A stretch of DNA of 64,000 nucleotides from Nitrosopumilus sp. (GTDB lineage Archaea; Thermoproteota; Nitrososphaeria; Nitrososphaerales; Nitrosopumilaceae), in NCBI GenBank assembly GCA_965203315.1, contig OZ241857.1, forward strand, positions 1,056,001 through 1,120,000, read 5' to 3'. The notes below the pieces were generated by a model. It ran no database searches. It had not been told where the DNA came from and worked only from the letters and a program-made list of their open reading frames with translations. Both the position numbers and the translations under genes were made by a program. Positions 403 to 28,425 of this stretch are shown piece after piece (position 1 is the stretch's first letter; each line of letters starts with the position of its first letter).

Positions 403-1857
403 TCATCTAAACGACTCTACTTTAACAAACGCTGCGTCCAATCTAGCGTGTAACTCTTTATTCCACTCTTCAAACCCATTAGGATCTTGTGGATACTTGT
501 TATAGTGATCTACAAGCCACTTGTTCTCGTTTGATGTATATCGCAATCCTTCTGCCACCGTCTTATTCATGGCACCTCGAATTATCATTTCCAACTTTGT
601 CAGACCACTAAAGTCTGGATGCTCACCCTTGCTTATCGACTCGATATCGAGATTACCTAAAAAGTGCTTCATTCCATAACTTATCTGATCGTTGGTCATC
701 TGTTGTACTAGTCGCCTAAAGAGTTCAAGACCCGCAGTCTTGTAGCCATACTCTTTGATAAAATCGATATTGTACTGCCATAGTCCACTCTCAGATAGAT
801 CACCTGCCTCTAGTGCTTGTGCTATATTATTTCCTAGTATGGTTCCAGCGATTATTGCAGGTCCTATGCCTCCTGCATCTATTGGCTTTGGCATCCATGC
901 CGAGTCACCTACTAGTACGTATCCACCAGACACCATACAGTCGTTCTGTCTACGGACTGATACTTGGAATACTCCTGAATTGTTGTCGATATCTTCGGGA
1001 TCTTGCGAGAGCCGAGGATTTGTAATGGCGTGATTTCGTGCAAGATACTCTTTCATCAGTGACTCTACATTATCACTCTTGCCGAGACGTTTGTTACGTT
1101 TATCCAAGAATGACTTTTCTACACCTAAACCAATGTTTACTTTATTGACCCCTTTTGGAAAGACCCAACCATATCCTCCAGGCGCAATATCTTGATCTAG
1201 ATGTATTATGCAATAGTTGGGATCAAAGTCTGAGAGATCTTGTTGAACTTGGTCAAAGTACATGATATATCTGCCCGTAGATTCTAGATCTCGACGATCT
1301 ATACGTCTCTCTACCTTGTCAGAGTTCTTTAACCCATTTCTCAACATAGAGGTTACTCCAGTTGCATCGACTACGACCTTGGCAGTACACTTGAATGGTT
1401 GTCTTGTACTGTTGTCTACTCCTTGTACGCCTACAACTTGGGGCCCATCATATAACAGACCAGTGAGGTTTATCTCGTATCTAAAGTCTACTCCCATGTG
1501 TCTACAGCGTTTATTTTGGATCTCTGGCAATAGTTGTCTATTCAACATGTATCCGTCGCCGTCAAAGGGAATTGATGTCTCTCTATCTGGAGATAGAGCT
1601 ATGACCCCTTGTACATCGTACTCGATCTCCGGTCTACTCCAATTCACACCTATTCTGCTCGTCATAAAGTCTACTGCCTCCTTTGAGCAGGCATCGCCAC
1701 ACACCCATCCTGCATGAGATTTACGACCAGGAGTTGTCTCGGGGTTTCGATCGATCACTAGAATTCTAGCGTTCTGACGTGAATAGTACGATATCGACTG
1801 TGTCACTATCGTTCCGGCTAGACCGCCACCTGCAACTATAACATCATAATCTGCCAT
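403..1857 (-). CDS. Geranylgeranyl reductase family FAD-dependent oxidoreductase (digeranylgeranylglycerophospholipid reductase-like)
   Basis: GGGLAG FAD motif, CGDA, APGGYGWVFPKG, LVGDSA..PKPIDAGGI. Confidence 0.85.
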   Translation of the reverse strand: MADYDVIVAGGGLAGTIVTQSISYYSRQNARILVIDRNPETTPGRKSHAGWVCGDACSKEAVDFMTSRIGVNWSRPEIEYDVQGVIALSPDRETSIPFDGDGYMLNRQLLPEIQNKRCRHMGVDFRYEINLTGLLYDGPQVVGVQGVDNSTRQPFKCTAKVVVDATGVTSMLRNGLKNSDKVERRIDRRDLESTGRYIMYFDQVQQDLSDFDPNYCIIHLDQDIAPGGYGWVFPKGVNKVNIGLGVEKSFLDKRNKRLGKSDNVESLMKEYLARNHAITNPRLSQDPEDIDNNSGVFQVSVRRQNDCMVSGGYVLVGDSAWMPKPIDAGGIGPAIIAGTILGNNIAQALEAGDLSESGLWQYNIDFIKEYGYKTAGLELFRRLVQQMTNDQISYGMKHFLGNLDIESISKGEHPDFSGLTKLEMIIRGAMNKTVAEGLRYTSNENKWLVDHYNKYPQDPNGFEEWNKELHARLDAAFVKVESFR

Positions 1858-1970
1858 AACTTACCTTACACCATCCTCATCTGTTAGTCTGTATTTAAAA
1901 TATCATAGCATTCAGCATTACCCAAAATATCTCTTATCAACATACATCGAGATCTGTACGTGTAATTATT

Positions 1971-2020
1971 GTACACTAATGTACATTAATGTATAGCAAT
2001 GTATAGCAATGTATGTCATT
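1971..2020. repeat. Five imperfect 10-bp tandem repeats
   Basis: gtacactaat gtacattaat gtatagcaat gtatagcaat gtatgtcatt in a divergent intergenic region. Confidence 0.6.
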
Positions 2021-2217
2021 AGCGATCTATAAGCCGCTGAGATGAACAACGAACGGCTGTTTTTGGAAGACATTGTCTTTGTATAATTCTAAAACAGATA
2101 CACAAGGATTGTAAACTGATACGAGTCACAAAATGTCTCTAGTCTCGTAATTGTCTCAACTACTAAAATGTAAAGCCATCAGAGGCTAGATCGCAAAACC
2201 TAGGAACTAGACAGAGA

Positions 2218-3057
2218 TTGAACCAAAAATATAATATTATTCATGCAACAGACACCACATACTTGACGGAAATTGTCCCATATCTAGATTGGAATAACTC
2301 GATCGACATACTAGACAAAGCATACGAGTCAAGACTCTTTGTGTTGGTCGTGGGCCCAAAGGGAACAGGCAAGACATCACTGGTGCGAGAGTTTGCAAAT
2401 ATGCATAATATACATTTACAGTCGATCAACTTTAGTTTGCGCACTCGTGAGAGTCATCTGGTTGGAACAAAGACACTAAACGAAGGAACCATAAGTTTTG
2501 ATGAAGGTCTCTTGATCAAATCTATGAGACAAGGCGATCTATTATACCTAGATGAGATAAATGCAGCAGAAGCAGATGTTCTACTACGGTTGGATGAAGC
2601 TCTAGATGACAGGCGCCAAATAGTACTAAAAGAGTCAGATGGTCAGACAGTTCATGCAGACGATGGATGGTTTGTGGTTGCGACCATAAATCCATTAACA
2701 CATAGTGGCACAAAAGAGTTGCCGCCGCAACTATTAAGTCGATTTCCAGTTAGAATAAGATTAGAATATCCACCAGAAGATATAGAGCTCGATATTGTAC
2801 GACGACACGTATCTGGACACGATGATACAATACTACAAGCCATAAAACTTGCAAACACACTGCGACAAGCAGCTGCAGTAGAAGAGCTCTATTACGCTCC
2901 CAGTCTGAGAGAGACTATTGCGTTTGGTAAACTAGTGCAACACGGAGTCAAACCTAACGATGCTGCGGTCTATATCTTTGGAAACGTATACACGCAATGG
3001 GGCACTATAGAGTATCAGAAAGCAAACGACATAATCGTATCGATGTTTGGACAATGA
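2218..3057 (+). CDS. MoxR/CbbQ/NirQ-type AAA+ ATPase
   Basis: Walker A GPKGTGKT, Walker B LYLDEINAA, ATINP, SRF arginine finger. Confidence 0.9.
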   Translation: MNQKYNIIHATDTTYLTEIVPYLDWNNSIDILDKAYESRLFVLVVGPKGTGKTSLVREFANMHNIHLQSINFSLRTRESHLVGTKTLNEGTISFDEGLLIKSMRQGDLLYLDEINAAEADVLLRLDEALDDRRQIVLKESDGQTVHADDGWFVVATINPLTHSGTKELPPQLLSRFPVRIRLEYPPEDIELDIVRRHVSGHDDTILQAIKLANTLRQAAAVEELYYAPSLRETIAFGKLVQHGVKPNDAAVYIFGNVYTQWGTIEYQKANDIIVSMFGQ

Positions 3058-4625
3058 ACAGCATATCACTAAGTAACGACTCGTTGATAGAGATTGCAAC
3101 CTTTCTTGCAAGACGGTGGTCTGGTAGAAATGAGTGTATGGTACAGATATCATCTAACAGTAATACTAGGGTACAGAGTAGAGATAGAATATTACTCGCT
3201 GCATTAGACAAGCGATCTGGTAATGGCTTTGAGCGATACAGACAGTTTCGAGTATCGTTGTGGTATGAAGCTATGCGATCCAAATACTGTGAAAAGGTTC
3301 TCAGTAGTGATCATGCATTCGGATTCATTCTAAACACGATGGAGACTAGACGAATTGAATCACTAGGCAGGCAGACATGGCAAGGGATGAGTGGTGAGCT
3401 GCTCTTCAACTATGCAGTCATGTTGTCATCAAGGCCTTATCTACGAGATGTATATGGTAGAGCAAGAATAGTTGAGGCATTTTATCAGTACTATATGTTT
3501 GGAGTGATAAAAGGAGAGATCCAATCGAGTCACCTAGAGCGCGTACACAAAGCAGCAGATCTCGCAACAAGACTGGTCCAAGAGTCACTAAAACAGAGTG
3601 ACACCAGATGGCTAGAACATAATACAAGCAAGATTATAAAGATACTAGATATAGACTCGCTCTTGACTATTCCTGTATCGTTACCATACATGAGATCAGG
3701 CATGGCATTAAACGAAGAAGAGTTGCGCAAGAATCTAAAGTTGATAACAAGAGATAGAGAAGACGATTGGGTCCAACTCGATCCTAATGATGTATTATCG
3801 GGTCGAGACATCTATGACGAATATACGATATTGGTAAACGAGAACAAAAAGACTCAAAATCTAGGACTAGGACAAGAGACCGTTGGAGTTCAATTACCAT
3901 CAGCACATAATGTTGACGAGACTGCAATATACGATATAGCACTGATCAGTGGACTAAAGACCAAATTCAAAGTGTGGAAGACTGGATGGAGTGAACAACA
4001 TTTAGACTCGGGTGACGAGTTTGATGAAGAGAGCTATATCGAGGGTAATGAACCATTCTTCACAGATATGAGACGAACTATTAAAACAAGGATCACCATT
4101 CTCCTAGACCACTCTTCAAGTATTGCAGCAGATGCACTAGAATACAAAAAGGCGACTCTGGCATTATGTGAGGTGTTGGCATTTCTGAGAATCGATTTCT
4201 CTGTATATGCATTTAGTACACAAGATAGAGCTGTAGTATGCTGGGTCGTAAAACCAGACAATACAAAATGGAACAGTCTTGCTGCAAAGCGACTTGCGCA
4301 GATAGTTGCAAACGGCTCTACGCCCTTGGCAGAGGTATACGACAAAATGTACGATACATTACAAGCAAGGCGACCAGACATATTTCTCACTCTTACTGAT
4401 GGTGAGCCGTCTGATCCAGATGCAGTAAGAAAGATGACAAATCAATTCAAGTCACTCGGAATAAAGATGGTGGCGATGGGTATGGGTCACAGTACAATTC
4501 GGGCAACCACAATTGCAAGCAACTTGAGACACTTGGGATATGAACGAACTGTAGCAGTAAGTAGACTAGCAGATATTCCAGACAAAGTCATGTCTATACT
4601 AGATGGACCATCTGATATTTTTTAA
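3054..4625 (+). CDS. von Willebrand factor A domain protein (MoxR partner)
   Basis: MIDAS-like LLDHSSS, GSTPL, LTDGEP; ATG at 3054 overlaps the ATPase stop (ATGA). Confidence 0.85.
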   Translation: MNSISLSNDSLIEIATFLARRWSGRNECMVQISSNSNTRVQSRDRILLAALDKRSGNGFERYRQFRVSLWYEAMRSKYCEKVLSSDHAFGFILNTMETRRIESLGRQTWQGMSGELLFNYAVMLSSRPYLRDVYGRARIVEAFYQYYMFGVIKGEIQSSHLERVHKAADLATRLVQESLKQSDTRWLEHNTSKIIKILDIDSLLTIPVSLPYMRSGMALNEEELRKNLKLITRDREDDWVQLDPNDVLSGRDIYDEYTILVNENKKTQNLGLGQETVGVQLPSAHNVDETAIYDIALISGLKTKFKVWKTGWSEQHLDSGDEFDEESYIEGNEPFFTDMRRTIKTRITILLDHSSSIAADALEYKKATLALCEVLAFLRIDFSVYAFSTQDRAVVCWVVKPDNTKWNSLAAKRLAQIVANGSTPLAEVYDKMYDTLQARRPDIFLTLTDGEPSDPDAVRKMTNQFKSLGIKMVAMGMGHSTIRATTIASNLRHLGYERTVAVSRLADIPDKVMSILDGPSDIF

Positions 4626-4768
4626 TCACAACAAGATCAGTTCTTTTAACGAGTTGGTAACATTATGCGTAAATCTGAAAAATAAAATTACGTTTGTGTA
4701 AATTATTCGATCGTTTGATCTGTATATTTTGGAGATTTGTTGTAGACTCGACATGCACGAGTTAAAAG

Positions 4769-4884
4769 AGATCTTTTTGGTTTATGTGGAATGATATTTT
4801 ACAAGATGGTTCTCACTAAATTTTCCCTACAAAATTCCATAGTATTTTTTCTGTAAAGTTCTATCCCACATACGTCAGAGATTC
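4769..4884. mobile_element. MITE family A copy (left end of composite)
   Basis: AGATCTTTTTGGTTTATGTGG ... CCCACATACGTCAGAGATTC; aligns with the reverse complement of 9637-9753. Confidence 0.75.
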
Positions 4885-5011
4885 TAAAGATAGAATGTCA
4901 AAGATGTCATTTTTGTGTACATTTCAACCCAACCCTACGAATAATCAACAAGAATTGAACACTCAGATTAATGGTGGACAATTTTTGATATCACATATCT
5001 CGAATGCAAAC

Positions 5012-8000
5012 CTACTCGGTTAGCCAGCCTAGATTGATCAGGGTTCTAGTGCGAGAGTCCATGTCACCAAACTCATAGGTAAAGATGTTGTCGATCTCGG
5101 CATATGCTTTTGTCTTGTATGCATCGTATAGCGAGTCACGCAGTTCTATCATCTTTTGGGTGTGCCAGTCGAGTTTGACCTTGAATGGCGCACATATTCT
5201 GTCGTTGATGTCTGTACATACTGGAGTGGTACCTGCGTATGGTGCATATTCTACTATTACGAAATGACCAAACGAGTTGCGACTCCATGTGTTTCCAAAC
5301 GCATCAGCCCATAGATCAGAGACCTTGTCTGTACGGACTAGAATAAGATTTACTGGTCTGCCATCGTCACGAGATAGTGTCAGTCCTGGCTGTACAGTTG
5401 GTGGTGTGTTTAGTGATGGACCTTCAACAAAGACGCCTTCATTCATGTAGTTTATTGCGTTTAGTGATAACGTGTCTGTTACTTGTATTGCAAATGGTTC
5501 ATGGTTCATCACCTCACGGAACAGTACATCTGGAATGGTTACTTGGGTACATTGCAGCTCACCACCAGAGCAAGATGCAGTAGATACGATCGTACCAGTG
5601 ATGTCATAGTCTATGATGTTGTTTGGGTCATGTATAGTAACATCTGTGATATAGTGGTATGACGGTTCGCTATAGTTTATTCCAAGATTTACAGAAATGT
5701 ATGCTTCAGCTGTACTCAGTGGAGCGCCAACATTTGGTACACTAAACGCCAGTACGACATTTCTCAACAGGGTTGGTGCGTATGCCTTGAGAGCAAATGT
5801 GTGTGTTGTGTTTGTTTGGATTGTATTTCGTTCATACTGGACATGGTATGCAGTAACATCACGGCAAGTGTCGTCCATCATATAGCCACATGTTACGACT
5901 TGTTCACCGGTGTATAGCGATCTGCCAAACGTTGGTGCAAGTGTTAGATAGGTATCGTCCGAGTCACTGGGTGGAGGTGGAGGACCAGGATTAAAGTTGA
6001 TAATATGGGTAGGCATAATTATTGTACCAGCAGTTCCATAAAATCCTGTTAGTCGTTTTGTTATAATGACGATATCATCACCGTGTTTACCATAGCACAT
6101 GATATTTTTATCCTTGAGAGTATTGGTGGTCGTATCGATTATTTTATCTGTACACGCAGGAATTGGTTGAGCCTTTGTTATGTTTTCACGAGGTGAGAAA
6201 TAGTATGGATGTTCGTCTGTTTTATTGTATATGGTGAATCGCATCTCTTTGTCGGTTATGAGAGGTTTGGTAGAGTTTTTTGTGAGGTCTATGTTACATC
6301 CAGCTCTTTTGATAAAGTTTGGTCCAAACGAACCCGAGTCTGCTATCAGATTGGTAGGTACTTTAAGAGTGAGATTTCCATAATTGTTGTCTGCAATCAA
6401 AAGATTGACAGTTCTGAATTGAGCTACACACGTACTCGTTTCCGGAAACTCGTTGGGGAGTATCTTTGTATCGTTTTGTACATGCAAGTCGCCTATTCTA
6501 GTGTTCACGTGACCAGTATATCGCTCACGATCACTACCTGGTATGTATGCGCCAGGAGCAGTAGTTGGGTCAGATGTTACCGATAGGGATTTTCCATCTG
6601 GGTCTGGTTTGTCAGGAAAGTCTGATGGTGGTGCCAGTGTCAGAATATTGGTATCACGAGGGACGGTAGGTGCGTTGAGGTCCACTGGAGTTTTAGGTGG
6701 GTTGACGGTATCGGCTGCACCATAAAATCCAGTCAGTCGCTTTGTGATGATGACGATATCGTCACCGTGTATGCCATAACATATCGTATTGTTGCCTTTG
6801 AGGGTATTGGTGGTTGTATCTAGTATATCAGTTGTACACACAGGGATTGGTTGAGCCTCGGGTATTCTGTCACGTGGAGAGAAATAGTAGGGAGTTTTCT
6901 CTGCCTTGCCGTATATCGTATATCGTATCTCTTTGGTGGTTATTAACGGTAGGCTATGTACAGCTTCGGGATCTGCCGGCGTGCAGCTTGCAAAGTCTAA
7001 TCCATATGCGTGTACACTACGCAGAGGTGTTTTAGGAACTATATTATCGGGTATGGCAAATTTTGGAACCTTGTCTGTGTTTAGGGTTGCAACATGCCGT
7101 AAATCCGCATTACATCGGTAAACACCAATGCCCTTGAATAGAGGATGTACGATGTTGGTATCTTGTGCTAGATAGATATCAGCTGTGGGCTTGGTTAGAT
7201 GATCGATGAATCTGCGATCGTTGCCACCATAGTATATCTTGCCATCACTAAACTCGTCCTGGTCAAAACCTATTGCAGAGTCATCCTTTGTGTCGGTTAA
7301 TGGTGGTATAGTCAATGCCATCGCATATGTACTAGCAGATTCTGTACGTGGAGGTGCTGCATTGAGGTCTATTGGATTTGCAGGCGCGGTAATGTTATTG
7401 GCTACACCATAAAATCCAACCAGTCGTTTTGTGATAATTACAATGTCATCTCCATGTTTGCCGTAACATATGGTATTGTGACCTTTGAGTTTGTTGTTGT
7501 TTGTGTCGAGTATAGCAGTTGTACATGCAGGTATGGGTTGTGCAGCAGATATGCTGTCACGTGGAGAAAAGTAGAAAGGCTTTTTGTCTGTCTGGTTGTA
7601 TATGGTATATCGCATCTCTGTGTCGGTTATCAGTGTTTGGTTGGATACTTTACCAGGATTTGGCTTGCATTTCTTGTCAAAGCCTAGGCCGTATGCAAAG
7701 AGTTCATTCTTTTGTGTAGGAGTGATGTTATCGGGTACGACAAATTTTGGACGCGCGTTTTTGTCGAAATTTTTAACACGCTCAAAGTCCATATCACATT
7801 CATACTCACCGGTACCAGCAAACAGAGTCCGTGGGAGTGTACTAGTATCATGTTCTAGATAGATATCAGCGGTAGCTCTCTTTTTGTTACCATCATCGGT
7901 CATTCTAACAGTGTCGCCATCATAGAATAGTACGCCGTCACGTTCTGTCGTTGATTTAACGCTCAGCCCAGCATAATCTTTCTCGTCGGTTAGTGGCGGT

Positions 8001-9475
8001 ATCGTTAGTATAGTACCTGAATCTCGTGGTACGCCTGCGACTGCATAAAATGCAATCCTCTTTGTTATAATTACGATATCGTCACCATTCTTGCCATAGC
8101 ACATCTTTGTGGTACCTTTGAGAGACTGGTTGTTCAGATGTATCATATCGGTGGTACATGCAGGTATCTGGACAGCTGTGGTGATATCGTCACGAGGCGA
8201 GAAATAGTACGGTTGGTTGGTTGTGTCGTATATTGTGAATCTCATCTCTTTCTCTGTGAATATAGGATTTGGTGATTTGGCGTCCATGTCTACTTTACAA
8301 CTACCGGCAACAGGACCAAAGTCGAGTGCCAGTCCAACTATACCGTTTGGATTAGTTGGGTTTATGTTGCTTGGTATGGTAAACGATGGAACCTTGTCGG
8401 TCTTGGCCAGTTCCGTTATAGACCAGACATCTACATCACAGTCAGTATTTGCGTAAGAGTTGGTTACAGAGTTGAAAAATATTGGGTTGGACTCTGTACG
8501 TGTAGGAGTGGGTATGTACACATCACCTACTTGACCATTAGGTTCGTTCTCGAATGCCACAGGAGTGAATACATACTTGTTGTTGGCTTCATCTCTGACC
8601 ATGAACGTAGTCTGCCGATCACCATTAGTAGTGGTTATGGTCCGTAGATCATAATCAGTAGATATCTCAAGGTTGTCAGGCTTGGGTATCGTCAGTATAG
8701 ATTGAGCAGCAGGATCTGGAACAACAGGATCTATAGCTGCATTGAGGTCTATTGGGTTTGTAGGCGGGGTGACAGTGTTGGCTGCACCATAAAATCCGGT
8801 CAGTCGCTTTGTTATAATGACCATATCATCACCATGTTTGCCATAACATATCGTATTGTTGCCTTGTAGAGTATTGTTGCTTGTGTGAATTATTGTACTA
8901 GTACATATGGGTATGGGTTGTGCTTGTAATATTCCGTCACGTGGTGAGAAATAGTAAGGCTTTTTGTCTGCCTTGCCGTGTAGAGTAACTCGCATATCCT
9001 TGTCGGTTATCAGTGTTTGATTAGAGGGGGTTTCAGGACTTGGTGTGGAACAGGGGGATTGAAAGTCTAGACCGAATCCAAATAGTCTGTTCTTTTTATT
9101 AGGCTGGATATTGTCTGGTATGGCAAAGTTTGGAACATCACTTGTGCTGAGACCTTTAATAGCAACCAATGATGCATAACACCCATAAGTGCCGACACCC
9201 TCAAACAGAGGGCGTGTGAGTGTATGAGTCTCTGTCTCTACATAGATATCACCATTAGGATTTGGTTTGTCTGTGTATCTATTAGAAGAGCCACCATAGT
9301 ATATCTGGCCACTAATAGAGTCGTCCGAGTTAAATTGTAATACACCGTGAACTGTCGAGTTGGTCTTTGGCGGCACGGTCAATATATCTGCCCCAAACGC
9401 ATCATCTAGATCAACTAGTAAAAGTGGTACAACTGCTGCCAAAACCAGAACAGAGATTAGACGACGCTTACTCAA
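5012..9475 (-). CDS. Large secreted/surface protein with 5 copies of an unrecognised ~220-aa Cys-containing domain and a C-terminal thaumarchaeal surface-protein-type domain
   Basis: N-terminal signal peptide; five repeats ending YFSPR..IPxCT..CYGxxGDDxVIITKR; Pro-rich linker before the C-terminal domain (LAPTFG...). Confidence 0.85.
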   Translation of the reverse strand: MSKRRLISVLVLAAVVPLLLVDLDDAFGADILTVPPKTNSTVHGVLQFNSDDSISGQIYYGGSSNRYTDKPNPNGDIYVETETHTLTRPLFEGVGTYGCYASLVAIKGLSTSDVPNFAIPDNIQPNKKNRLFGFGLDFQSPCSTPSPETPSNQTLITDKDMRVTLHGKADKKPYYFSPRDGILQAQPIPICTSTIIHTSNNTLQGNNTICYGKHGDDMVIITKRLTGFYGAANTVTPPTNPIDLNAAIDPVVPDPAAQSILTIPKPDNLEISTDYDLRTITTTNGDRQTTFMVRDEANNKYVFTPVAFENEPNGQVGDVYIPTPTRTESNPIFFNSVTNSYANTDCDVDVWSITELAKTDKVPSFTIPSNINPTNPNGIVGLALDFGPVAGSCKVDMDAKSPNPIFTEKEMRFTIYDTTNQPYYFSPRDDITTAVQIPACTTDMIHLNNQSLKGTTKMCYGKNGDDIVIITKRIAFYAVAGVPRDSGTILTIPPLTDEKDYAGLSVKSTTERDGVLFYDGDTVRMTDDGNKKRATADIYLEHDTSTLPRTLFAGTGEYECDMDFERVKNFDKNARPKFVVPDNITPTQKNELFAYGLGFDKKCKPNPGKVSNQTLITDTEMRYTIYNQTDKKPFYFSPRDSISAAQPIPACTTAILDTNNNKLKGHNTICYGKHGDDIVIITKRLVGFYGVANNITAPANPIDLNAAPPRTESASTYAMALTIPPLTDTKDDSAIGFDQDEFSDGKIYYGGNDRRFIDHLTKPTADIYLAQDTNIVHPLFKGIGVYRCNADLRHVATLNTDKVPKFAIPDNIVPKTPLRSVHAYGLDFASCTPADPEAVHSLPLITTKEIRYTIYGKAEKTPYYFSPRDRIPEAQPIPVCTTDILDTTTNTLKGNNTICYGIHGDDIVIITKRLTGFYGAADTVNPPKTPVDLNAPTVPRDTNILTLAPPSDFPDKPDPDGKSLSVTSDPTTAPGAYIPGSDRERYTGHVNTRIGDLHVQNDTKILPNEFPETSTCVAQFRTVNLLIADNNYGNLTLKVPTNLIADSGSFGPNFIKRAGCNIDLTKNSTKPLITDKEMRFTIYNKTDEHPYYFSPRENITKAQPIPACTDKIIDTTTNTLKDKNIMCYGKHGDDIVIITKRLTGFYGTAGTIIMPTHIINFNPGPPPPPSDSDDTYLTLAPTFGRSLYTGEQVVTCGYMMDDTCRDVTAYHVQYERNTIQTNTTHTFALKAYAPTLLRNVVLAFSVPNVGAPLSTAEAYISVNLGINYSEPSYHYITDVTIHDPNNIIDYDITGTIVSTASCSGGELQCTQVTIPDVLFREVMNHEPFAIQVTDTLSLNAINYMNEGVFVEGPSLNTPPTVQPGLTLSRDDGRPVNLILVRTDKVSDLWADAFGNTWSRNSFGHFVIVEYAPYAGTTPVCTDINDRICAPFKVKLDWHTQKMIELRDSLYDAYKTKAYAEIDNIFTYEFGDMDSRTRTLINLGWLTE

Positions 9476-9507
9476 TAATTACCCCCCCCCCCCCCTATCT
9501 TATAAAA
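9476..9507 (-). promoter_or_regulatory. TATA box (TTTTATAA, 9507-9500) followed by a G14 homopolymer (9495-9482) just upstream of the TTG start
   Basis: Minus strand reads TTTTATAA-GATA-G14-TAATTA-TTG. Confidence 0.65.
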
Positions 9508-9636
9508 GTACTCACAAGTACGATAAGATCGATGCAACACAGACACAAAAATCAAACATGCTTGACATCAAAGCGTGATGTCAACCGAATCATACAGATA
9601 AAAGATCTCCAATTCTCGCAACGGAGAGATAATCAA

Positions 9637-9753
9637 GGATCTCTTCGATTTATGTGGGATAGAATTTTCACAGGAAAAACACTACAAAATTCTGTATGGA
9701 AAATTTAGTGAAAAAGTCTTGTAAAATGTAATCGTATGTAAACCAAAAGATCC
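9637..9753. mobile_element. MITE family A copy (right end of composite)
   Basis: GGATCTCTTCGATTTATGTGGG ... TAAACCAAAAGATCC. Confidence 0.8.
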
Positions 9754-9797
9754 GTTAAAAGAACCTTTTATAATGCGACACATCACATAACAAGATC

Positions 9798-11288
9798 GTG
9801 GACGATGAACTACTAGCCGAGTTTGAACAACACATACTAGACAAAGTTCCACATGTTGTTGATGGCGCAGTAGTAAATGCGACTAGGTTGATAGATCTCT
9901 CCAACGATCTGATCCAGTGTGCAAAAGAGTGTTACAATATTGATCTAAATAATATAGAGGTTTATGGCAAGTTTGAGTCTGATCTACTTGCAGGATCGAT
10001 TAAAGTTCGACCTGCTGTACACATCATACATGATGCCATAAAGTCAGGTAAACTAGAACGAGGGCAGACTATAATCGAGGCCACGTCTGGAAACTTTGGT
10101 ATTGCACTAGGCAAACTGACTAGGCTCGGTATACCTGTAATATCGCTAGTATCACGTAAACTCCAAGAGGGAGTCTTTGATGAGCTCAAAGAAGGAGATA
10201 TCAAGGTTATTGATCTAGACATGGATATATGTCCAGCACCTGGCGCTAGTGGCAGTAGTGACGATATCCAAGCGAGAGCAGCTGCTGCAAATATTCGATC
10301 ACAGCTAGTTTCATTAGGATTCGATGGCAAGTCGTTTGATGATCATATCCAAGAGATACACAATCTCTTAAAATCTCAAGATATCATAAACTTGGCTCGA
10401 TACCTTGCAGAGATATACGGATGTTTCTGTCCAGAACAATATGACAACCAGTTGAACATCAATGTACATCAGACAGTCACAGGACCAGAGATAGATCAAC
10501 AGCTTGCAAATAAAGACAAGTCATTAGGAGACTATACAATATTTTGTACGTTTGGTACAGGAGGTACGTCAGGAGGTCTAAGTAATTACATGTATGAAAA
10601 GTATCAAAAGAGATCTGTACACGTAGTGTTTCCTATACCCGGTCAGGATGTTGCAGGTATTAGAACAAAGGCCAAAGCAACAGGACTGCACTTGTACACT
10701 CCAGAGATATATGCTCAAGAGTACGAGATCGACTTTACAAAGGCAAAATCACTCTTGAGATTCTTTGTAAAGAGAGGTCACGATATCGGTGAGAGTACTG
10801 CACTAGCATTGTACACAATATTAGAGAATGTAAAAGACCAAGGTGGTAAATTTGTGGTGATTGCAGCAGACGGGATTGCAAAGTACAAAAAGAGTCTAGA
10901 AGAGAAGGCTCCGATTCAGATAAGTCTAACAGACGCTACTGTTGCCAACTATGACAAGATAGTTTGGGTTCATACTCAATATACTCCTCGTGATGCAGGA
11001 ATCGATGTGATTGCAAGAGCATTAGGAGTTGACAGATCAAAGATTACGATTCCAAAGGCGAAGACAGTAGACAGACTACTCCAAACAAGACAAGTTCCAG
11101 ACGAACTTGTCGAAGATCTGAAAGGCAATACACTTTTGGTCTGTATGGCAGGAAATACATCCTTGATGACAGCAAATGTTCTTGCAAGTAAAGGAATCAC
11201 GACACAGAGTTTGAACGGTGGAATCACAAACCTACCAGAGAGTCAGCAAAAGAGTCCAGCAGACCTTGTACAGTTTGCAAGGGAGTAG
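9798..11288 (+). CDS. PLP-dependent cysteine synthase family protein with C-terminal rhodanese-like domain
   Basis: GSIKVR (PLP lysine), EATSGNFG, GTGGT; C-terminal LLVCMAGNTS...SLNGGI. Confidence 0.8.
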   Translation: MDDELLAEFEQHILDKVPHVVDGAVVNATRLIDLSNDLIQCAKECYNIDLNNIEVYGKFESDLLAGSIKVRPAVHIIHDAIKSGKLERGQTIIEATSGNFGIALGKLTRLGIPVISLVSRKLQEGVFDELKEGDIKVIDLDMDICPAPGASGSSDDIQARAAAANIRSQLVSLGFDGKSFDDHIQEIHNLLKSQDIINLARYLAEIYGCFCPEQYDNQLNINVHQTVTGPEIDQQLANKDKSLGDYTIFCTFGTGGTSGGLSNYMYEKYQKRSVHVVFPIPGQDVAGIRTKAKATGLHLYTPEIYAQEYEIDFTKAKSLLRFFVKRGHDIGESTALALYTILENVKDQGGKFVVIAADGIAKYKKSLEEKAPIQISLTDATVANYDKIVWVHTQYTPRDAGIDVIARALGVDRSKITIPKAKTVDRLLQTRQVPDELVEDLKGNTLLVCMAGNTSLMTANVLASKGITTQSLNGGITNLPESQQKSPADLVQFARE

Positions 11289-11293
11289 AACAC

Positions 11294-11662
11294 TTGCGCT
11301 GTCTATCGGTATGTCAGCCGTTTGCAGAGTTGATCATATCTGGTAGAAAGACGATCGAGTTGCGAAGATGGAATACAAAGTTTCGTGGTGAGTTTTTAGT
11401 TCATGCTGCAAAGAAGATCAGAGTCAGAGATTGTGTACGACTTGGAATGAACCAAGAGCTAGTTACAGGTGCACTGGTCGGGAGAGCAGAGATATACGAC
11501 GTAAAGATCTATGACACGACAGAACAGATAGACGACGACCGTACACTACATCACTCAGACAGTTCGGCTGGCAGATATGGATTCATGTTAAGAGATCCAA
11601 AGAGATTTGCATCTGCTATACCACATAGTGGCAGACTCGGATTCTTTGATGTAAAACCATAG
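11294..11662 (+). CDS. ASCH domain protein
   Basis: LSVCQPFAELIISGRKTIELRRW..RGEFLVHA. Confidence 0.85.
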   Translation: MRCLSVCQPFAELIISGRKTIELRRWNTKFRGEFLVHAAKKIRVRDCVRLGMNQELVTGALVGRAEIYDVKIYDTTEQIDDDRTLHHSDSSAGRYGFMLRDPKRFASAIPHSGRLGFFDVKP

Positions 11663-13249: not shown

Positions 13250-14966
13250 GTAAGCGGTTAGGCTGACAACGATTCTTGCTGTGTGTTGAGCATTTAGGAT
13301 ATTGATGGATTATTTACATGACATACGAACTTACTATCTAGTACGTCTCTTCAGCAGCCTTTGCCGTGAGAATTCTCAACAATTCGTCTCTAATGCTCAG
13401 CCCACGTTTACGACATGTAAAGAAGAACGTAAACAAGATAGACCACGCATCCATGCCGCGCTGCGATGTAAAGTGCAGCGAAATGTTGCGATGTATTGCA
13501 ATTGGCCGCATGTACAGTTCTGTCTCGTTGTTCGTGGGATCCATTCCAGGATGGTTCACGAATGTAAAGAGATTGGGAGCAGCATTACGCAGCGTCGTCG
13601 CAAATTTCTTGTTGCCGAGCTTTTCGTGCTGATCTACAACATCTAATACCTGTGCTATTAAATCAGACACATCTCCCGGTGGTCGTCCCTTGGCTATGTG
13701 AAATATCTTTTGTAGTCTTTCGTGCAATATTGTAGTTTCATGGCAATATAGGGCAGTCTTCATTGCATGTTTTGAATCGATCAATATGTGTGACCAACAT
13801 CTCTGCGTGTCATCATCCGTCTCGTAACCGCAATATCCATCAACAGTCTTGCATTTGTTTTTAAACGGTTTGAAATATTCATCTAAAACCCTCGATCCTC
13901 GTGTATCTGTTACACGAACGAGAACTGCATCATCTGTGACACATGTCCACACATATCCACGTTTGCCTGGTACTTTATGTGGCGTTTCGTCAAATTTGAC
14001 ATTTTCAGAACTTTCAGCTGCTTTCCAGATGCCTGAAACATCGTCTTCTATTGCGTTAACGAGTGCAAATGTAGCGTTGTTTATGGTTGCTTTAGATGGA
14101 CGGTAATCAAAAAACTCTAATTGTTTTTGAATCATTCCTTGTGACATGTTGTTGAATAGTGAAATTCCATGATGGACTAGCATGTTTATGCTCATCTCTG
14201 TACCCTTGATCTTGGGAATCTTTTTACTAGTATCCCACTCGTATCCGCAACCATTACACGTATGTTTATATCCAACATGCGTATTTATCTCGGTTTTTGG
14301 CAGAGGTACATCACGAATCCTACACTGATATGATTTGTTGTACGTGATATCTATGCCATGGCAGCCTGGACACGCTGAATCTATGTACGGGACAGTACCT
14401 GCTGATTTGTCCGTCTGCGATACTCCTACGTGATTCTCTTTTTGGCCTACTTTATTGTAATCCTTTGGATCTATATACGCTGCTATTCTTTCTTGCATTG
14501 TAGGTATGCTGTTCTTGGATGATGGATTAAACGGACTCTCATAGTATGGCATCTTTTGTTGTAACTCTTGATTCTCTTTTGCGTGTGTACATGTCTCTGG
14601 TTCACATTGATCTGAATGACCACCTAGTTGTTGTTCAAGTTTACGTTCCAGTTCTGCAGTTCGCAGTTCTCCTCGTAATATGACGCCTCCCTGCCATTCA
14701 ATCATATCTAGTGCAATGCGAATTATCTCGTCTTTGTCATCGAGTTGTGTATGCAACATTGCGATCTCCTCTCGAAGTATCTTCATCTCTGATTGAGGCA
14801 TGACATTCATAGTTATGTACTAGTATTTACACAGATCAAAAAATAAAGTTGACACAATGGTAAGCCAAACTAAACACTAATTTTTTCTAATCATGCAGAT
14901 CGACATGAATTGCATACGTTATCTTGCTCAAAACACCACAAGATCGTTGTCAGCCTAACCGCTTAC
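13250..14966 (-). mobile_element. IS66-family insertion sequence (single-ORF type)
   Basis: Perfect 24-bp TIR GTAAGCGGTTAGGCTGACAACGAT; 8-bp TSD AATTTAGA at 13242-13249 and 14967-14974. Confidence 0.93.
13338..14810 (-). CDS. IS66-family transposase
   Basis: Coiled coil, CPGC/CNGC Zn finger, FDETP, VDGY, QRCWSH, PTNNETE. Confidence 0.93.
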   Translation of the reverse strand: MNVMPQSEMKILREEIAMLHTQLDDKDEIIRIALDMIEWQGGVILRGELRTAELERKLEQQLGGHSDQCEPETCTHAKENQELQQKMPYYESPFNPSSKNSIPTMQERIAAYIDPKDYNKVGQKENHVGVSQTDKSAGTVPYIDSACPGCHGIDITYNKSYQCRIRDVPLPKTEINTHVGYKHTCNGCGYEWDTSKKIPKIKGTEMSINMLVHHGISLFNNMSQGMIQKQLEFFDYRPSKATINNATFALVNAIEDDVSGIWKAAESSENVKFDETPHKVPGKRGYVWTCVTDDAVLVRVTDTRGSRVLDEYFKPFKNKCKTVDGYCGYETDDDTQRCWSHILIDSKHAMKTALYCHETTILHERLQKIFHIAKGRPPGDVSDLIAQVLDVVDQHEKLGNKKFATTLRNAAPNLFTFVNHPGMDPTNNETELYMRPIAIHRNISLHFTSQRGMDAWSILFTFFFTCRKRGLSIRDELLRILTAKAAEETY

Positions 14967-16757: not shown

Positions 16758-18289
16758 AGACATTATGCGTTAGTCGTTTTCAACGATACCAAAGCTAGTT
16801 GAAATTCGTAAGTTATTGCGTCAACGTCATTACACAAGTGTCTAAAATTAGAATATCTCATTCAACTTTGCAAATACAATCAAAATATTGCGTTAATGTA
16901 CATGAATGTACAGGAATACAGTAAATCATAAACAGATAATGGTATCCTGTATTGCATTGTGATGTTTTAGCCGTATCTCTTTCTCAATTTGTTGGCACGC
17001 CGATGATATGCACGCAATAGCTTGTCAAATCTCTTGGTTGACCGATCGCGTCTTTTGTCCCATAATATGCCTGCATTTACAAGTGCTGCTACCTCTTCGA
17101 TTCTTTTTTCTAAATCAGGTTCAACACATTCAATTTGTTGTTGCATGTGACGATACTGCTTGATCATTCCTATGGAATTTTCAACCACCACGCGTTCTGA
17201 GCTGTGATCTCGGTTAAACTCTTTCTGCTCTTTGGTGAGCTCGCCGCCACGAGGTTTTTTGAATGGTACGATAAAGTTTGTTCCTGGAAATATACTCTCG
17301 CCACCTTGGTATGCAGAATCCTGACGCATCTTTATTCTCTCTTTACGTGGAGTTGATGGATCTCTCATCTTGTCTTCCCATTTACCAAATCCCAATTTCC
17401 ACTCTTTGAGTATGGTTATCTCGTGCGTACTGCCATAGTATAATGGACTCATAGTTAGGATCAGCTTTTCTTTGTTCACCATCACTAGAATTACACAAGT
17501 GTGTTTCTTTAGTTTGCCAGACCTTGACCACGTTTCTAACTGAGAATCTGATGGTATATCGATTATGAAATGAGTCCCATCAATTGCAGTCTTTAAGCGA
17601 GGAATCCATTCTCGTAGATCTTGTAATGTTTTACATTTAGAGATCTGGTCTGCTATATCTATTGGTCTTGTCCAAGATTGATTCAGGAATCTACGTACAT
17701 GTCTAGTATGTCTAGAGACATTGCTTTGACTCATATCAAATATGGACCCAATCACATCTTGAGTCATTCCAGCTCGAGTAGACATAAACTCCATCAACAT
17801 GACAGCTGTTGTGCTTAATACTGACACCTTTCCTCGTCCAACATTAACGCCAGAGTATTGTGGTATCTTTGGTTCACCATCTAGTTTCTCTTTACGTCTC
17901 TTGTTGAGTTGATCATTGCGTCTCTCTCTAATTGATTCATCTTTGATGTATTGTTTGTATTCTTTATCATACAGCGCGAATAGATTGGGAGTCATTTTTG
18001 TGAATTTATACAAAGTAGTTGGTTTGGAGAGGATCCTCTTACAAAAATCATCAACCTTTTCTGTTTTCTGTCTGTAAAAATTAGGTTTATTGTTCGCCTC
18101 TTGGTCGAGTTGTTCTGCAACAGTATCTCGTTGTTGCTCTAGTTCACTAACAGTCTGCTCTAACTCTTTTACTCTTTGCTGGAGACACAGTATTTGTCCG
18201 TTTGACGTACTAGTTTTTTGACTCAATGATTGCTATTTTTAGACCTACGATCTAAGTGTTTCGGTCAAAACGACTAACGCATAATGTCT
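16758..18289 (-). mobile_element. IS5-family (ISL2/DDE_Tnp_4-like) insertion sequence
   Basis: 23-bp TIR AGACATTATGCGTTAGTCGTTTT; 3-bp TSD TAT. Confidence 0.88.
16967..18226 (-). CDS. DDE superfamily transposase
   Basis: HTH (FDMSQSNVSR), AIDGTH, DSAYQG, PFKKPRGGELT..QKEFNR..SSERVVVENSIG. Confidence 0.9.
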   Translation of the reverse strand: MSQKTSTSNGQILCLQQRVKELEQTVSELEQQRDTVAEQLDQEANNKPNFYRQKTEKVDDFCKRILSKPTTLYKFTKMTPNLFALYDKEYKQYIKDESIRERRNDQLNKRRKEKLDGEPKIPQYSGVNVGRGKVSVLSTTAVMLMEFMSTRAGMTQDVIGSIFDMSQSNVSRHTRHVRRFLNQSWTRPIDIADQISKCKTLQDLREWIPRLKTAIDGTHFIIDIPSDSQLETWSRSGKLKKHTCVILVMVNKEKLILTMSPLYYGSTHEITILKEWKLGFGKWEDKMRDPSTPRKERIKMRQDSAYQGGESIFPGTNFIVPFKKPRGGELTKEQKEFNRDHSSERVVVENSIGMIKQYRHMQQQIECVEPDLEKRIEEVAALVNAGILWDKRRDRSTKRFDKLLRAYHRRANKLRKRYG

Positions 18290-19467: not shown

Positions 19468-22400
19468 TTATGGATCTGGACAACCGTCGGTATCTCGATC
19501 ACCATCATAGTCCTCTGGTTCTGATACACATTGATCTTGATCATCTATGATTCCGTCTAGATCAGAGTCATGTACAAAGCGTTGTTGTTCCGGAATTATA
19601 TCTGGACAACCGTCGGTATCTCGATACTTGTTCCATGTCTCGGGTTGAAGTGGACAAGAGTCAAGTTCGTCCCGATAACCGTCCTTGTCTGTATCATATA
19701 CAGGCGGTATAACAGATTCAGCGCCTGGTACATCTGGGCAGCCGTCAAAGTCTAGATAGTTGTTATAGTTTTCTGGTTCGTCAACACAAGAGTCCCATCT
19801 ATCGTCTATACCGTCAGAGTCGGTATCTGAGAATACAAATCTAGGTACAGTAGATTGGGGTGCTTGGTCAGGACAGCCGTCGGTATCTTGGTATCTGTTG
19901 TATGTCTCGGGAGCATCAACACAAGAGTCTACACTGTCTGATATGCCGTCATTGTCACGATCTATTAGCAAGTTAATATCATCAGGACAGCCGTCGGTAT
20001 CGTCGATTCCATTAAAGGTCTCTGGCTCGTTTGGACATCTATCCAAATAGTCTAGAATATTATCACCGTCAGAGTCGGAGACTCCTCCTTCTTCAGGTAC
20101 AACATCAGGGCAGCCGTCTGCATCTTGGTATCTGTTGTATGTCTCGGGTTGGTTTGGGCAGAGATCTATATCATTAAAGATTGCGTCTCGATCATAATCT
20201 GATGTTCGTACATGCATGATCGAGTCTGGGCAGCCGTCATCGTCTTGAAAGTTGTTGAATCTCTCGGCAACTAGAGGGCATTGGTCTACACTATCTGGAT
20301 ATCCATCATAGTCTGAATCTATTGGAGTAGCAGATGCTACATTTACTCCTGGTACATCTGGGCAGCCGTCAAAGTCTAGATAGTTGTTATAGTTTTCTGG
20401 TTCGTCAACACAAGAGTCCCATCTATCGTCTATACCGTCAGAGTCGGTATCCGGGAATACAAATCTGGGTGTATCTGATCCTGGTGCTTGGTCAGGACAA
20501 CCGTCGGTATCTTGGTATCTGTTGTATGTCTCTGGAGCATCGGGACACTGGTCTACATTATCAAGAATTAGATCACCGTCAGAGTCACTGTTTGGAGCTC
20601 TGTCTGGGCAGCCGTCGGTATCATCAAAGTTGTTGTAAGTCTCGGGTTGGTTTGGACAGAGATCTCTACTATCAATTATCAGATCATTGTCCGAGTCATA
20701 ATCGGATGGAGATTCGTCTAGACTGTCAGGACAACCGTCGGTATCTTGGTATCTGTTGTATGTCTCTTTGATGTACACACACTGATCAAATGGATCGTTT
20801 ATTCCATCGCCATCAGAGTCGCCAGTAGATATGAACTCGACTGTGTCTGGACAACCGTCGGTATCTTGAAACTTGTTATAGTTTTCTCGTAATAGAGGAC
20901 ATGCATCTTCCGAGTCAGGTATTGTATCATAGTCGGTGTCAACTATGCTGTTTGGATTAGCGCCTGGTACATCTGGGCAGCCGTCAAAGTCTAGATAGTT
21001 GTTATAGTTTTCTGGTTCGTCAACACAAGAGTCCCATCTATCGTCTATACCGTCAGAGTCGGTATCCGGGAATACAAATCTGGGTGTATCTGATCCTGGT
21101 GCTTGGTCAGGACAACCGTCGGTATCTTGGTATCTGTTGTATGTCTCTGGAGCATCGGGACACTGGTCTACATTATCAAGAATTAGATCACCGTCAGAGT
21201 CACTGTTTGGAGCTCTGTCTGGGCAGCCGTCGGTATCATCAAAGTTGTTGTAAGTCTCGGGTTGGTTTGGACAGAGATCTCTACTATCAATTATCAGATC
21301 ATTGTCCGAGTCATAATCGGATGGAGATTCGTCTAGACTGTCAGGACAACCGTCGGTATCTTGGTATCTGTTGTATGTCTCTTTGATGTACACACACTGA
21401 TCAAATGGATCGTTTATTCCATCGCCATCAGAGTCGCCAGTAGATATGAACTCGACTGTGTCTGGACAACCGTCGGTATCTTGAAACTTGTTATAGTTTT
21501 CTCGTAATAGAGGACATGCATCTTCCGAGTCAGGTATTGTATCATAGTCGGTGTCAACTATGCTGTTTGGATTAGCGCCTGGTACATCTGGGCAGCCGTC
21601 AAAGTCTAGATAGTTGTTATAGTTTTCTGGTTCGTCAACACAAGAGTCCCATCTATCGTCTATACCGTCAGAGTCGGTATCCGGGAATACAAATCTGGGT
21701 GTATCTGATCCTGGTGCTTGGTCAGGACAACCGTCGGTATCTTGGTATCTGTTGTATGTCTCGGGTTCGTCAACACAAGAGTCTACACTGTCTGATATGC
21801 CATCATTGTCACGATCTGTTAGTGAGTTAATATCATCAGGACAACCGTCGGTATCGTCGATTCCATTAAAGGTCTCTGGTTCGTTTGGACATCTATCTAA
21901 ATAATCTGCAAGTCCATCAGCATCAGAGTCAGGAATTCCCCCTGGATCATCGGTCGAGTCAGGACACCCATCTGCATCTTGAAATCTATTCCATGTCTCA
22001 GGATGGTAAGGACATTGATCTATATCGTCAAATATTGAATCGTTATCTATATCGGTTATTCTCACATATATCGCAACATCGGGACAGCCATCATCGTCTT
22101 GAAAGTTGTTGAACCTCTCGGCAGCTAGAGGGCACTTGTCTATGCCATCTAGATATCCATCATTGTCAGAGTCTATTGGGAGACCGACAGACAAGGCGCC
22201 TGGTACATCAGGACAGCCGTCAAAGTCTAGATAGTTGTTATAGTTTTCTGGTTCGTCAACACAAGAGTCCCATCTATCGTCTATACCGTCAGAGTCGGTA
22301 TCCGGGAATACAAATCTGGGTGTATCTGATCCTGGTGCTTGGTCAGGACAACCGTCGGTATCTTGGTATCTGTTGTATGTCTCGGGTTCGTCAACACAAG

Positions 22401-28311: not shown

Positions 28312-28425
28312 GGAACTTTTCAATTTATGTGGAATGGTGTTTTAACACAAGTACTATCAGACTTTATAGGAATATTTTCAGGAAAAAGTCTTTAAAATAC
28401 CATCCCACGTAAATCGAAGAGATCC
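28312..28425. mobile_element. MITE family A copy
   Basis: GGAACTTTTCAATTTATGTGG ... CCCACGTAAATCGAAGAGATCC. Confidence 0.8.

Follow-up and report, generated by a model that had tools for sequence, protein, structure and literature searches.

Within the window, the 64,000-nt stretch of a Nitrosopumilus sp. chromosome that was analysed, the segment 4769-9753 is in all likelihood a non-autonomous composite transposon of 4,985 bp residing in an archaeal chromosome, and the block with its gene very probably came in as a single unit between two MITE relics (Table 1). The octamer GTTAAAAG, at 4761-4768 and 9754-9761, directly abuts the outer ends of both MITE-A copies, whereas the inner flanks TAAAGATA and ATAATCAA mismatch the octamer and each other at no fewer than four of eight positions in either orientation. 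Neither MITE is bounded by a duplication of its own, the target duplication being found only at the outer ends. The two copies are 78.6% identical when aligned inverted and 59.8% when aligned direct, which evidences their inverted orientation; typical pairs show a median likeness of 71%, with a 95th percentile of 81%. These observations agree with a sequence-only reading of this DNA, which had described an inverted, diverged MITE pair around one large gene and the octamer outside both outer ends. At its outer end, the right MITE lacks one base of the consensus, a case covered by our MITE-end search, which allowed gaps. Although 2.47 Mb contain 130 copies of the octamer, counting both strands, only these two of 346 MITE-A ends adjoin it at one mismatch or fewer. 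A solo copy in the window (57757-57870), already pointed out in that reading, is flanked by GTCAAGTC/GTAAAGTC, a 7/8 match.

The core of the element encodes one large ORF and no transposition gene, as judged from Pfam and NCBIfam profiles, which gave no match. The inner flank directly adjoining the upstream MITE aligns over 86 nt, at 84% identity, with the sequence beside a solo MITE, G000:C5:81133-81246, and retains a remnant of the latter's own older duplication. The match takes in the upstream MITE itself, and the solo copy, whose own duplication is intact, stands before another paralog of the cargo gene.

Table 1. Features of the element and its surroundings (positions in the window).
Feature	Positions	Strand	Remarks
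Flanking vWA-domain gene, outside element	2997..4625	+	Profile match; adjacency in relatives
Left part of MITE-B-like relic, insertion target	4639..4768	+	12-bp end 4639-4650
Left copy of 8-bp target-site duplication GTTAAAAG	4761..4768	+	Sequence
MITE-A downstream of cargo gene	4769..4884	-	IRL-type end outward
Cargo gene, 1,487-aa secreted protein	5012..9475	-	ORF, TTG start
Conserved C-terminal region, aa ~1178-1487	5015..5944	-	Common to large proteins of 16/150 same-genus genomes
Five ~230-aa repeats, four Cys each	~8711-9400, 7964-8653, 7331-8020, 6644-7333, 5960-6649	-	Within 5960..9400
G14 run separating start codon from TATA-like box	9482..9495	-	Candidate phase-variation tract
TATA-like box TTTTATAA of cargo gene, inside element	9500..9507	-	Sequence; function putative
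Inner flank of upstream MITE	9502..9636	-	Compared with solo MITE flank
MITE-A upstream of cargo gene	9637..9753	+	IRL-type end outward
Right copy of 8-bp target-site duplication GTTAAAAG	9754..9761	+	Continuous with MITE-B-like relic end 9754-9765
Flanking PALP / cysteine-synthase-like gene, outside element	9798..11288	+	TATA-like box kept at 9766-9773

An autonomous IS with the same ends

A search for a transposase gene with MITE-A ends uncovered a 1.5-kb (1,500-bp) IS that shares these ends and 8-bp duplications. Eight copies are full-length, six of them uninterrupted with an open 381-aa frame; four show exact 8-bp duplications, two have duplications swapped by inversion and two have none. 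The transposase matches DDE_Tnp_IS240 (E 1.6e-16; PF13610, 61 bits, cut-off 27), with D207, D266 and E307 as candidate DDE residues read from sequence, and carries SWIM and Zn-ribbon motifs at its N terminus. NF033587 (NCBIfam IS6) scored 103 bits, below its cut-off of 125 and still the top of ten families. The IS ends are similar to each other over ~27 bp, without G7, and the MITE consensus aligns with both of them. As described for the IS6/IS26 family (PMC7986276, PMC6807381), the helper IS has a DDE_Tnp_IS240 domain, ends starting with GG and an 8-bp duplication; however, it has neither the ~800-bp length, nor the 14-bp ends with GG and G7, nor the 210-250-aa transposase given there. This IS, the outer duplication and the sister composites described below support the earlier proposal that a transposase-free 5-kb unit was mobilised in trans.

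MITE pairs across the genome and spread of the cargo family

Nearby MITE-end pairs had matching outer 8-mers in 11 of 291 cases; 2,000 permutations averaged 0.42 such pairs and never gave more than 4, and no match occurred among 275 inner-facing control pairs. Of the 11, six are composites, four are autonomous copies of the IS and one, C5:228724-230859, is a single MITE-A split by a MITE pair of another family, which had looked like a composite and was not counted as such; in a seventh composite the outer 8-mers match at a 1-nt offset. Thus, six composites exist besides the one studied here, as the sequence-only reading had suggested looking for. Their cargo, counting all seven, is the secreted-protein family (three), a PIN pair (three) and a TPR protein (one), and the MITEs are 66-79% alike within the three surface-gene composites. 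The ends are inverted in five of the seven. Outward-facing IRL ends, also in five of seven, trace to two lineages only, and this bias is not significant. The composite C1:807812-811826 has direct MITEs that are 99.2% identical. In a broader scan, no enrichment was found for composites of a third MITE family (4/46 vs 2/52 in the control) or of MITE-B, whose sole long matches were MITE-A elements; two 1.5-kb B-ended pairs exist besides the known IS. When MITE ends were searched for intramolecular replicative inversion, a single IS pair proved swapped, and the remaining matches were at chance level (18 exact pairs against 2.7 expected). Solo MITEs retain their duplication in just 9 of 138 cases, which indicates that the flanks of this family are much rearranged or decayed.

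Paralogs of the cargo gene are found in two sister composites, C5:313729-318959 and C5:267377-277941, which have the downstream MITE and spacer in common with the 4769-4884 side. Homology to both ends exactly at the outer MITE end, and each has a different 7/8 duplication of its own. The earlier idea that such units spread the surface-gene repertoire holds in that composites do carry paralogs, but only 3 of the 14 paralogs with a full C-terminal domain lie inside them, and no MITEs bound C1:847541-851071, the paralog nearest to the gene body; composite transposition thus counts as just one of several ways in which the family spreads. Gene and element ends are mosaic relative to the paralogs, whose tree has one well-supported branch of 11 and does not allow the order of events to be recovered.

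Insertion site and assembly support

The vWA and cysteine-synthase genes are neighbours in 42 of 43 same-genus genomes, which constitutes a gene-order empty site, and in 52 of 80 named loci. As anticipated, the two genes are adjacent in relatives without MITE or cargo, although these relatives are too distant (~69% DNA identity) for a single octamer to be demonstrable. Neither the gene at this locus without MITEs in a relative nor a separate duplication for each MITE was encountered. The target itself had been read as a MITE-B relic. Indeed, MITE-B-type 12-bp ends are present at 4639-4650 and 9754-9765, but by BLAST the relic interior resembles no member of the 170-190-bp MITE-B family, and no 8-bp duplication was found around it, so that its identity is carried by the 12-bp ends alone.

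Contigs of the same species bridge the filled left junction (2900-5036) in three studies with no differences, and the filled right junction (9392-11400) in two studies with one gap. Among the contig pieces listed none covers the whole block, and run X7 contributed just short pieces internal to the gene, without junctions. No joint skipping the block, and hence no empty site in the same species, was seen among 15 of 20 joints in these contigs. A joint linking 4805 and 9668 on opposite strands, found in three runs, was considered as a cargo inversion and rejected, the positions not being homologous between the two MITEs; we take it to come from a short MITE copy at another place, for example 28664-28742. 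The assembly contains a 17.7-kb duplicate shared between C1 and C5.

Alternative origins and proposed route

The paired octamers might instead be the termini of two different MITE-B-type elements, both cut at one and the same base by independent MITE-A insertions, with the gene arriving by another route. The MITE-B terminal repeat, present in ~45 copies per end type, does contain the octamer, which is thus not a random word; yet the two insertions would have to fall exactly in register, neither MITE has a duplication of its own, the octamer is found at none of the remaining MITE-A ends and so marks no hotspot, and the same pattern with unrelated octamers recurs in six other composites. We consider this origin very improbable, even with a relic interior so unlike MITE-B. 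An assembly artefact is scarcely credible: the C1/C5 duplicate and the many similar paralogs of the gene show the genome to be repeat-rich, but contigs of three studies bridge the left junction and of two the right.

A solo MITE could also have inserted first, with its 8-bp duplication, and the gene been acquired later by recombination with a MITE-bearing donor, circular or linear, as an IS26-style translocatable unit or by gene conversion. Such routes are described for IS26 family members (PMC7986276), the mosaic gene and ends are compatible with them, and the near-identical direct MITEs of C1:807812-811826 fit. Circle integration, however, yields direct copies, whereas the copies here are inverted and 21% diverged, and intramolecular replicative inversion would leave one reversed copy of the duplication inside, which is not seen; taken jointly, these routes appear very unlikely. 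In a weaker form of the same idea, an older composite may have landed here and its cargo been partly overwritten later by paralogs.

We therefore retain transposition of the composite as a unit, for which we propose the following route. The MITEs would be internal-deletion derivatives of the 1.5-kb IS6-like element, and single MITE insertions would have occurred on either side of secreted-protein family genes; this step is partly shown. Homologous recombination among paralogs could then have swapped repeats, promoter regions and flanking MITEs, leaving a gene with a MITE at both ends. Finally, transposase supplied in trans from an intact IS copy would have treated the outer MITE ends as those of one element, so that the 4,985-bp block with its promoter entered the vWA-cysteine synthase spacer and 8 bp were duplicated, an event with a clear footprint. 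Hints on the mode of strand transfer point both ways, and we lean towards a replicative process (cointegrate, then resolution) over cut-and-paste because the direct MITEs of another composite are 99.2% identical and duplications are missing from most solo MITEs.

The cargo protein

The 1,487-aa protein contains 26 Cys, a single hydrophobic stretch at the N terminus and no C-terminal membrane helix, and matched no Pfam or NCBIfam profile. A first fold model (repeat 5 plus C terminus) did not resolve the repeat; the repeat model is all-beta (pLDDT 90.5), and its best matches in two fold searches, weak ones (Z 5-7, rmsd 3.5-4.5, Foldseek E 0.006), were the ankyrin and UNC5 ZU5 and the adhesion-GPCR GAIN domains. 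These belong to the ZU5 superfamily (ZU5, GAIN/GPS, Nup98), described in prokaryotic surface proteins (PMC3482391), although its CxH motif is absent from the cargo repeats, which have no sequence match to solved structures. A PDB sequence search with the repeat profile found nothing, and an ESM Atlas search with one repeat gave no usable match. The final strand has the sequence K-[R/H]-L-[T/S]-G-F-Y in roughly half of the copies. At the expected site of an autoproteolytic motif, ahead of the last strand, T or S is found in 18 of 28 repeats and H before L in two; 10 of 28 have A or V as the putative nucleophile, or lack it. Residues ~1178-1353 form an Ig-like beta-sandwich (Z ~8, a generic match), and metagenome contigs scanned with the C-terminal domain gave 33 pattern matches, none of them a relative. 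Most likely, the cargo is a variable protein, secreted or attached to the surface, whose ZU5/GAIN-like repeats may in part be self-cleaving, and slippage of the promoter poly-G run could switch its expression. A role as an adhesin is only putative, the features seen being a signal peptide, the repeats and an Ig-like fold.

Relation to known systems and significance

MITE-bounded composites of both orientations have been shown to transpose in bacteria (PMC4133298). As described, TIME-COMPs and IMU-bounded elements likewise consist of two direct or inverted MITEs around a transposase-free core of 1 to >10 kb, with a flanking target duplication and transposase acting in trans, but have Tn3-family ends, 5-bp duplications, near-identical MITEs and mostly resistance cargo on bacterial plasmids (PMC4133298, PMC13367494). 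Here the ends are IS6-like, the duplication is 8 bp, the MITEs of the surface-gene composites are diverged, and an archaeal chromosome carries surface-protein, PIN-pair and TPR cargo. The element is TIME-COMP-like, outside the strict definition by Tn3-family ends and 5-bp duplication. A MITE pair similarly mobilises the genes in between in the MITE-flanked class 1 integrons of Acinetobacter, which differ in their identical MITEs, bacterial host and integron cargo (PMC10969869). Our literature search, sparse in subscription journals, found no MITE-bounded composites in archaea. With the elements described here, composite transposition of this kind, hitherto mainly a matter of bacterial resistance genes, reaches an archaeal chromosome, and a single genome contains several independent cargoes.

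IS26-type elements form compound structures from direct copies only (PMC7986276), and all IS6 compound transposons are said to have direct ends, unlike most composites here; the one with duplicated direct MITEs is as cointegration predicts for pseudo-compound transposons (PMC7986276, PMC6807381). Whether archaeal 'IS6' elements share the cointegrate-only mechanism of IS26 (PMC6807381) is a question on which the inverted architecture bears, and the intact IS with its MITEs offers a direct test system. For the organism, these composites provide one means of multiplying a family of large, lineage-specific secreted proteins. More speculatively, and with considerable doubt, they may represent portable 'contingency cassettes', in which an IS6-like transposase moves inverted MITE pairs with whole surface genes and their phase-variable poly-G promoter, and recombination between copies shuffles the ZU5/GAIN-like repeats, part of them self-cleaving. 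If true, this would mean pathogen-style surface variation in an archaeon and an IS group that, unlike IS26, uses the outer ends of inverted copies.

Inverted MITE-A copies and a duplicated octamer delimit the cargo gene

The sequence-only reading placed an inverted pair of MITE-A copies around one large gene and its promoter, with an octamer outside both outer ends and non-matching inner flanks. Indeed, the two copies are 78.6% identical when inverted and 59.8% in direct orientation, a single large ORF with a TATA-like box lies between them, and the inner flanks are unlike both GTTAAAAG and one another (see table). This octamer is a portion of the end of a different family, MITE-B, but no other end among the genome's 346 MITE-A ends (174 left and 172 right, by gapped end-finding) adjoins it, so it is no hotspot. 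Outside the MITE-B-like relic, 4618-4638 and 9766-9797 are mutually similar (TATA-like word, closing ACAAGATC), as though the cysteine-synthase promoter had duplicated around it. MITE-B-type ends also bound two 1.5-kb stretches, C1:790965-792481 and C1:1913593-1915108 (C1 and C5 are contigs; the window occupies C1:1056001-1120000), with outer duplications of 8/8 and 7/8.

Features of the window's composite (window coordinates) and sister MITE-A-bounded units (contig coordinates)
Feature	Position	Strand	Description
Octamer GTTAAAAG	4761-4768 and 9754-9761		Abuts outer ends of both MITE-A copies
MITE-A copies	4769-4884 and 9637-9753		Mutually inverted
Cargo ORF, 1,487 aa, with TATA-like box	5012-9475	-	Sole large ORF between MITEs
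Run of 14 G	9482-9495		Between cargo gene's TATA-like box and start codon
Sister composite	C5:267377-277941		3,086-aa paralog of the cargo protein
Sister composite	C1:392497-394084		PIN-domain gene pair; left end an IS-end fragment, no full MITE
Sister composite	C1:807812-811826		PIN-domain gene pair
Sister composite	C1:1691504-1692961		PIN-domain gene pair
Sister composite	C1:1123730-1125264		TPR gene
Sister composite (gained with 1-nt offset)	C5:313729-318959		1,592-codon paralog

The composite separates a vWA gene from a cysteine-synthase-like gene, whose protein has closest named relatives mostly labelled Nitrosopumilus or Nitrosopumilaceae. The two genes are neighbours (34-402 nt between matches) at 46 of 48 loci, representing 42 of 43 genomes, with a cut contig as the sole exception; these are the best-scoring loci out of 143 genomes with a match. 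Among 80 named loci, the gap was 34-123 nt in 52 and longer in two, the order differed in four, and 22 had no vWA match within the fetched stretch; none contained MITE-A, and the single cargo-like match lay elsewhere in its locus. At ~69% DNA identity, these relatives are too distant to reveal the single octamer. Same-species contigs from runs X3, X4 and X5, which belong to three studies (one of them perhaps that of the source itself), crossed the left junction without difference; those of X3 and X4 also crossed the right junction, with a single gap. No single piece from these runs spanned the whole block, and no joint skipped it among the 15 of 20 joints listed. Given these bridged junctions and the lack of block-skipping joints among those listed, the insertion is genuine and seems fixed within the sampled material. 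The proposed empty site was seen as gene adjacency in relatives, but not as an empty allele among the joints listed for same-species contigs.

An IS6-like element shares the MITE-A ends

The anticipated transposase gene with MITE-A-type ends resides in a 1,500-bp IS (the helper), and encodes a 381-aa protein with a SWIM finger, a four-Cys ribbon and a DDE_Tnp_IS240 domain. Its eight full-length copies are 96.5-97% identical to one reference copy; six have an open frame and no interruption, and other IS split the remaining two. Exact 8-bp duplications flank four copies, two have swapped flanks and two have none. The swapped pair (C1:430005-431508 and 578127-579630, inverted) exchanged 8-bp flanks, through either a 148-kb inversion by recombination between IS copies or an assembly flip. 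At its two outward ends, the window's composite has the helper end type that lies upstream of the transposase gene. The MITE-A consensus aligns with the two helper ends joined, which identifies it as an internal-deletion derivative.

The best NCBIfam model is IS6, at 103 bits, below its cut-off of 125. We call the helper 'IS6-like' rather than an IS6 family member, because its length, ends and score depart from the family as delimited in the available parts of PMC7986276 and PMC6807381, the latter arguing there that archaeal elements fall outside IS6. We found helper relatives in 68 of the 150 same-genus genomes searched, none above about 45% identity over full length; MITE-A had no real match in those 150, just two short chance-level ones.

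Sister composites carry surface-protein, PIN and TPR genes

An nhmmer model retrieved 208 MITE-A matches, 135 of them >95 nt, once a 17.7-kb assembly duplicate was excluded (C1:1-17756 and C5:1-17756 are 99.98% identical, probably an assembly overlap of two contigs). Outer 8-mers agreed with at most one mismatch in 11 of 291 pairs (different matches, <=20 kb apart), against a permutation mean of 0.42 and maximum of 4 (2,000 permutations) and 0/275 inner-facing control pairs. These 11 comprise four autonomous IS copies, one MITE-A split by another element and six composites; permitting a 1-nt offset gave 12/417 versus 3/401 in the control. Further pairs with outer 8-bp duplications, as the sequence-only reading had envisaged, therefore exist, with surface-protein paralogs, the PIN pair and a TPR gene as cargoes. 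Weighing on the other side, just 9 of 138 solo copies keep their own duplication (6 exact, 3 with one mismatch).

C1:807812-811826 also contains an IS66 element and an IS5 fragment within an exact outer duplication, and looks like a recent cointegrate-type event. The window itself carries IS66-type (13338-14810) and IS5-type (16758-18289) elements, both with open transposase frames. The PIN-domain gene and its upstream UPF0175-like partner are multiplied at about 25 loci, often adjoining MITE-A; the copies at C1:1754112-1755547 and C1:1819753-1820663 are MITE-bounded without outer duplication. At C5:228760-230775, nested within a MITE-A, two copies of another MITE family (ends AGACTGTATGCGTATT, 3-bp duplication) enclose the same pair, possibly as a second-family composite; a genome-wide scan found no enrichment of composites of that family. 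The interval 28312-28742 of the window has one full and one short MITE-A, inverted and 431 bp apart; their outer 8-mers are 6/8 alike and they enclose no gene. This may be an empty composite that has decayed.

Origin of the block

Ends, duplication, helper and sister elements are directly observed for this system; the block would have been moved by helper transposase acting in trans on the two outer MITE ends. Integration of a circle at a solo MITE predicts direct copies, which does not fit the inverted ones around this block. Intramolecular replicative inversion likewise does not fit, since it predicts identical copies and one duplication inside. Ends are inverted in five of the seven composites; C1:807812-811826 has direct MITEs, 99.2% identical, consistent with cointegration. 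IS6 compound transposons invariably have direct copies, according to the available part of PMC7986276. A replicative transposase taking any two ends, followed by resolution, would suit both arrangements, with cut-and-paste as a possible alternative.

Homology with the sister carrying the 1,592-codon paralog extends from precisely the outer boundary of the downstream MITE across spacer and gene end, 1,190 nt at 84%. The 3,086-aa sister shares the same downstream MITE and the first 30 nt of spacer. Outside flanks of all three are unrelated, each with a separate duplication. The upstream MITE is of different origin: its inner 60 nt best match the solo MITE C5:81133-81246, placed ahead of another paralog with its duplication TTCAGATT intact, and the adjoining inner flanks agree at 84% over 86 nt (E 4e-18). 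The inner flank of the upstream MITE includes a remnant of TTCAGATT, two bases lost; a two-step origin would leave the old duplication on the inner side only, as seen here. The outer half of this MITE most resembles the downstream MITE of the 1,592-codon sister. Within the cargo gene, nt 777-1458 match two C5 paralogs at 93% identity, and nt 1457-4463 match C1:847541-851071 at 85%. Since gene and upstream MITE are both patchworks, we infer that paralog recombination was also at work. The cargo protein matches 24 loci in the genome (two matches being one gene). Only 3 of 14 paralogs with a full C-terminal domain lie inside duplication-bounded composites, so the suggested spread of the surface-protein repertoire by composites would be one route among others.

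The cargo protein and its poly-G promoter

The protein has a single hydrophobic stretch, at its N terminus, five four-Cys repeats, 17 N-glycosylation sequons and no C-terminal membrane helix. There is good support for a secreted or surface protein; an adhesin is a guess. The repeat was modelled with confidence as a beta-sandwich (pLDDT 90.5) whose best fold matches were the ZU5 of ankyrin and UNC5 and the GAIN of adhesion GPCRs (Z 7.0, rmsd 3.5, 120 aligned; Foldseek E 0.006). This predicted likeness is below the level that would prove kinship, yet consistent across both fold searches. In the last strand the sequence is T-K-[R/H/C/Q]-L-[T/S/A/V]-G-F-Y, and 18 of 28 repeats have T or S at the variable position after L; the GAIN cleavage motif is H-L/T. 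ZU5, GPS and Nup98 domains are grouped together, and found in bacterial surface proteins, in the available part of PMC3482391. A generic fold match (Z 8.0, rmsd 3.4, 117 aligned) places an Ig-like domain in the C-terminal part, which is shared by 16 of 150 same-genus genomes and, at 69-74%, by 16 proteins of other assemblies; the repeat profile matched none of the 150. Elsewhere in the window, 42170-45073 (-) and 46393-50835 (+) encode large secreted proteins, one a subtilase, C-terminally with a diverged cargo-type Cys-containing repeat, and 19468-22887 (-) encodes a 1,139-aa secreted protein with thrombospondin type 3-like repeats and near-identical internal 615-bp duplications.

The genome has 40 runs of at least 8 G, 21 of them upstream of ORFs with signal-peptide-like N termini (judged by eye). 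At these 21 genes, the cargo gene and 20 others, 9-15 G lie between TATA-like box and start codon. We take two of them to be S-layer-like, and an 869-aa gene at C5:308223, also preceded by a poly-G run, presumably resembles a type III Mod methyltransferase. The pattern is nearly absent from other same-genus genomes (2/150), and a literature search found no published report of poly-G promoter switching in these archaea. These runs are a candidate phase-variation system.

Relation to known elements

We found no published report of MITE-bounded composites in archaea in the literature searched, and the word 'composite' is absent from the available parts of an archaeal IS survey (PMC13343696). Some sponge-associated relatives have numerous transposases, as the available part of PMC7848895 states. 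The window's composite works like TIME-COMPs, bacterial composite transposons bounded by MITEs, and likewise resembles MITE-flanked integrons, as far as the available parts of PMC4133298 and PMC13367494, and of PMC10969869, describe them, but strictly speaking it falls outside the TIME-COMP group. As a MITE-bounded composite it is real and has good support.
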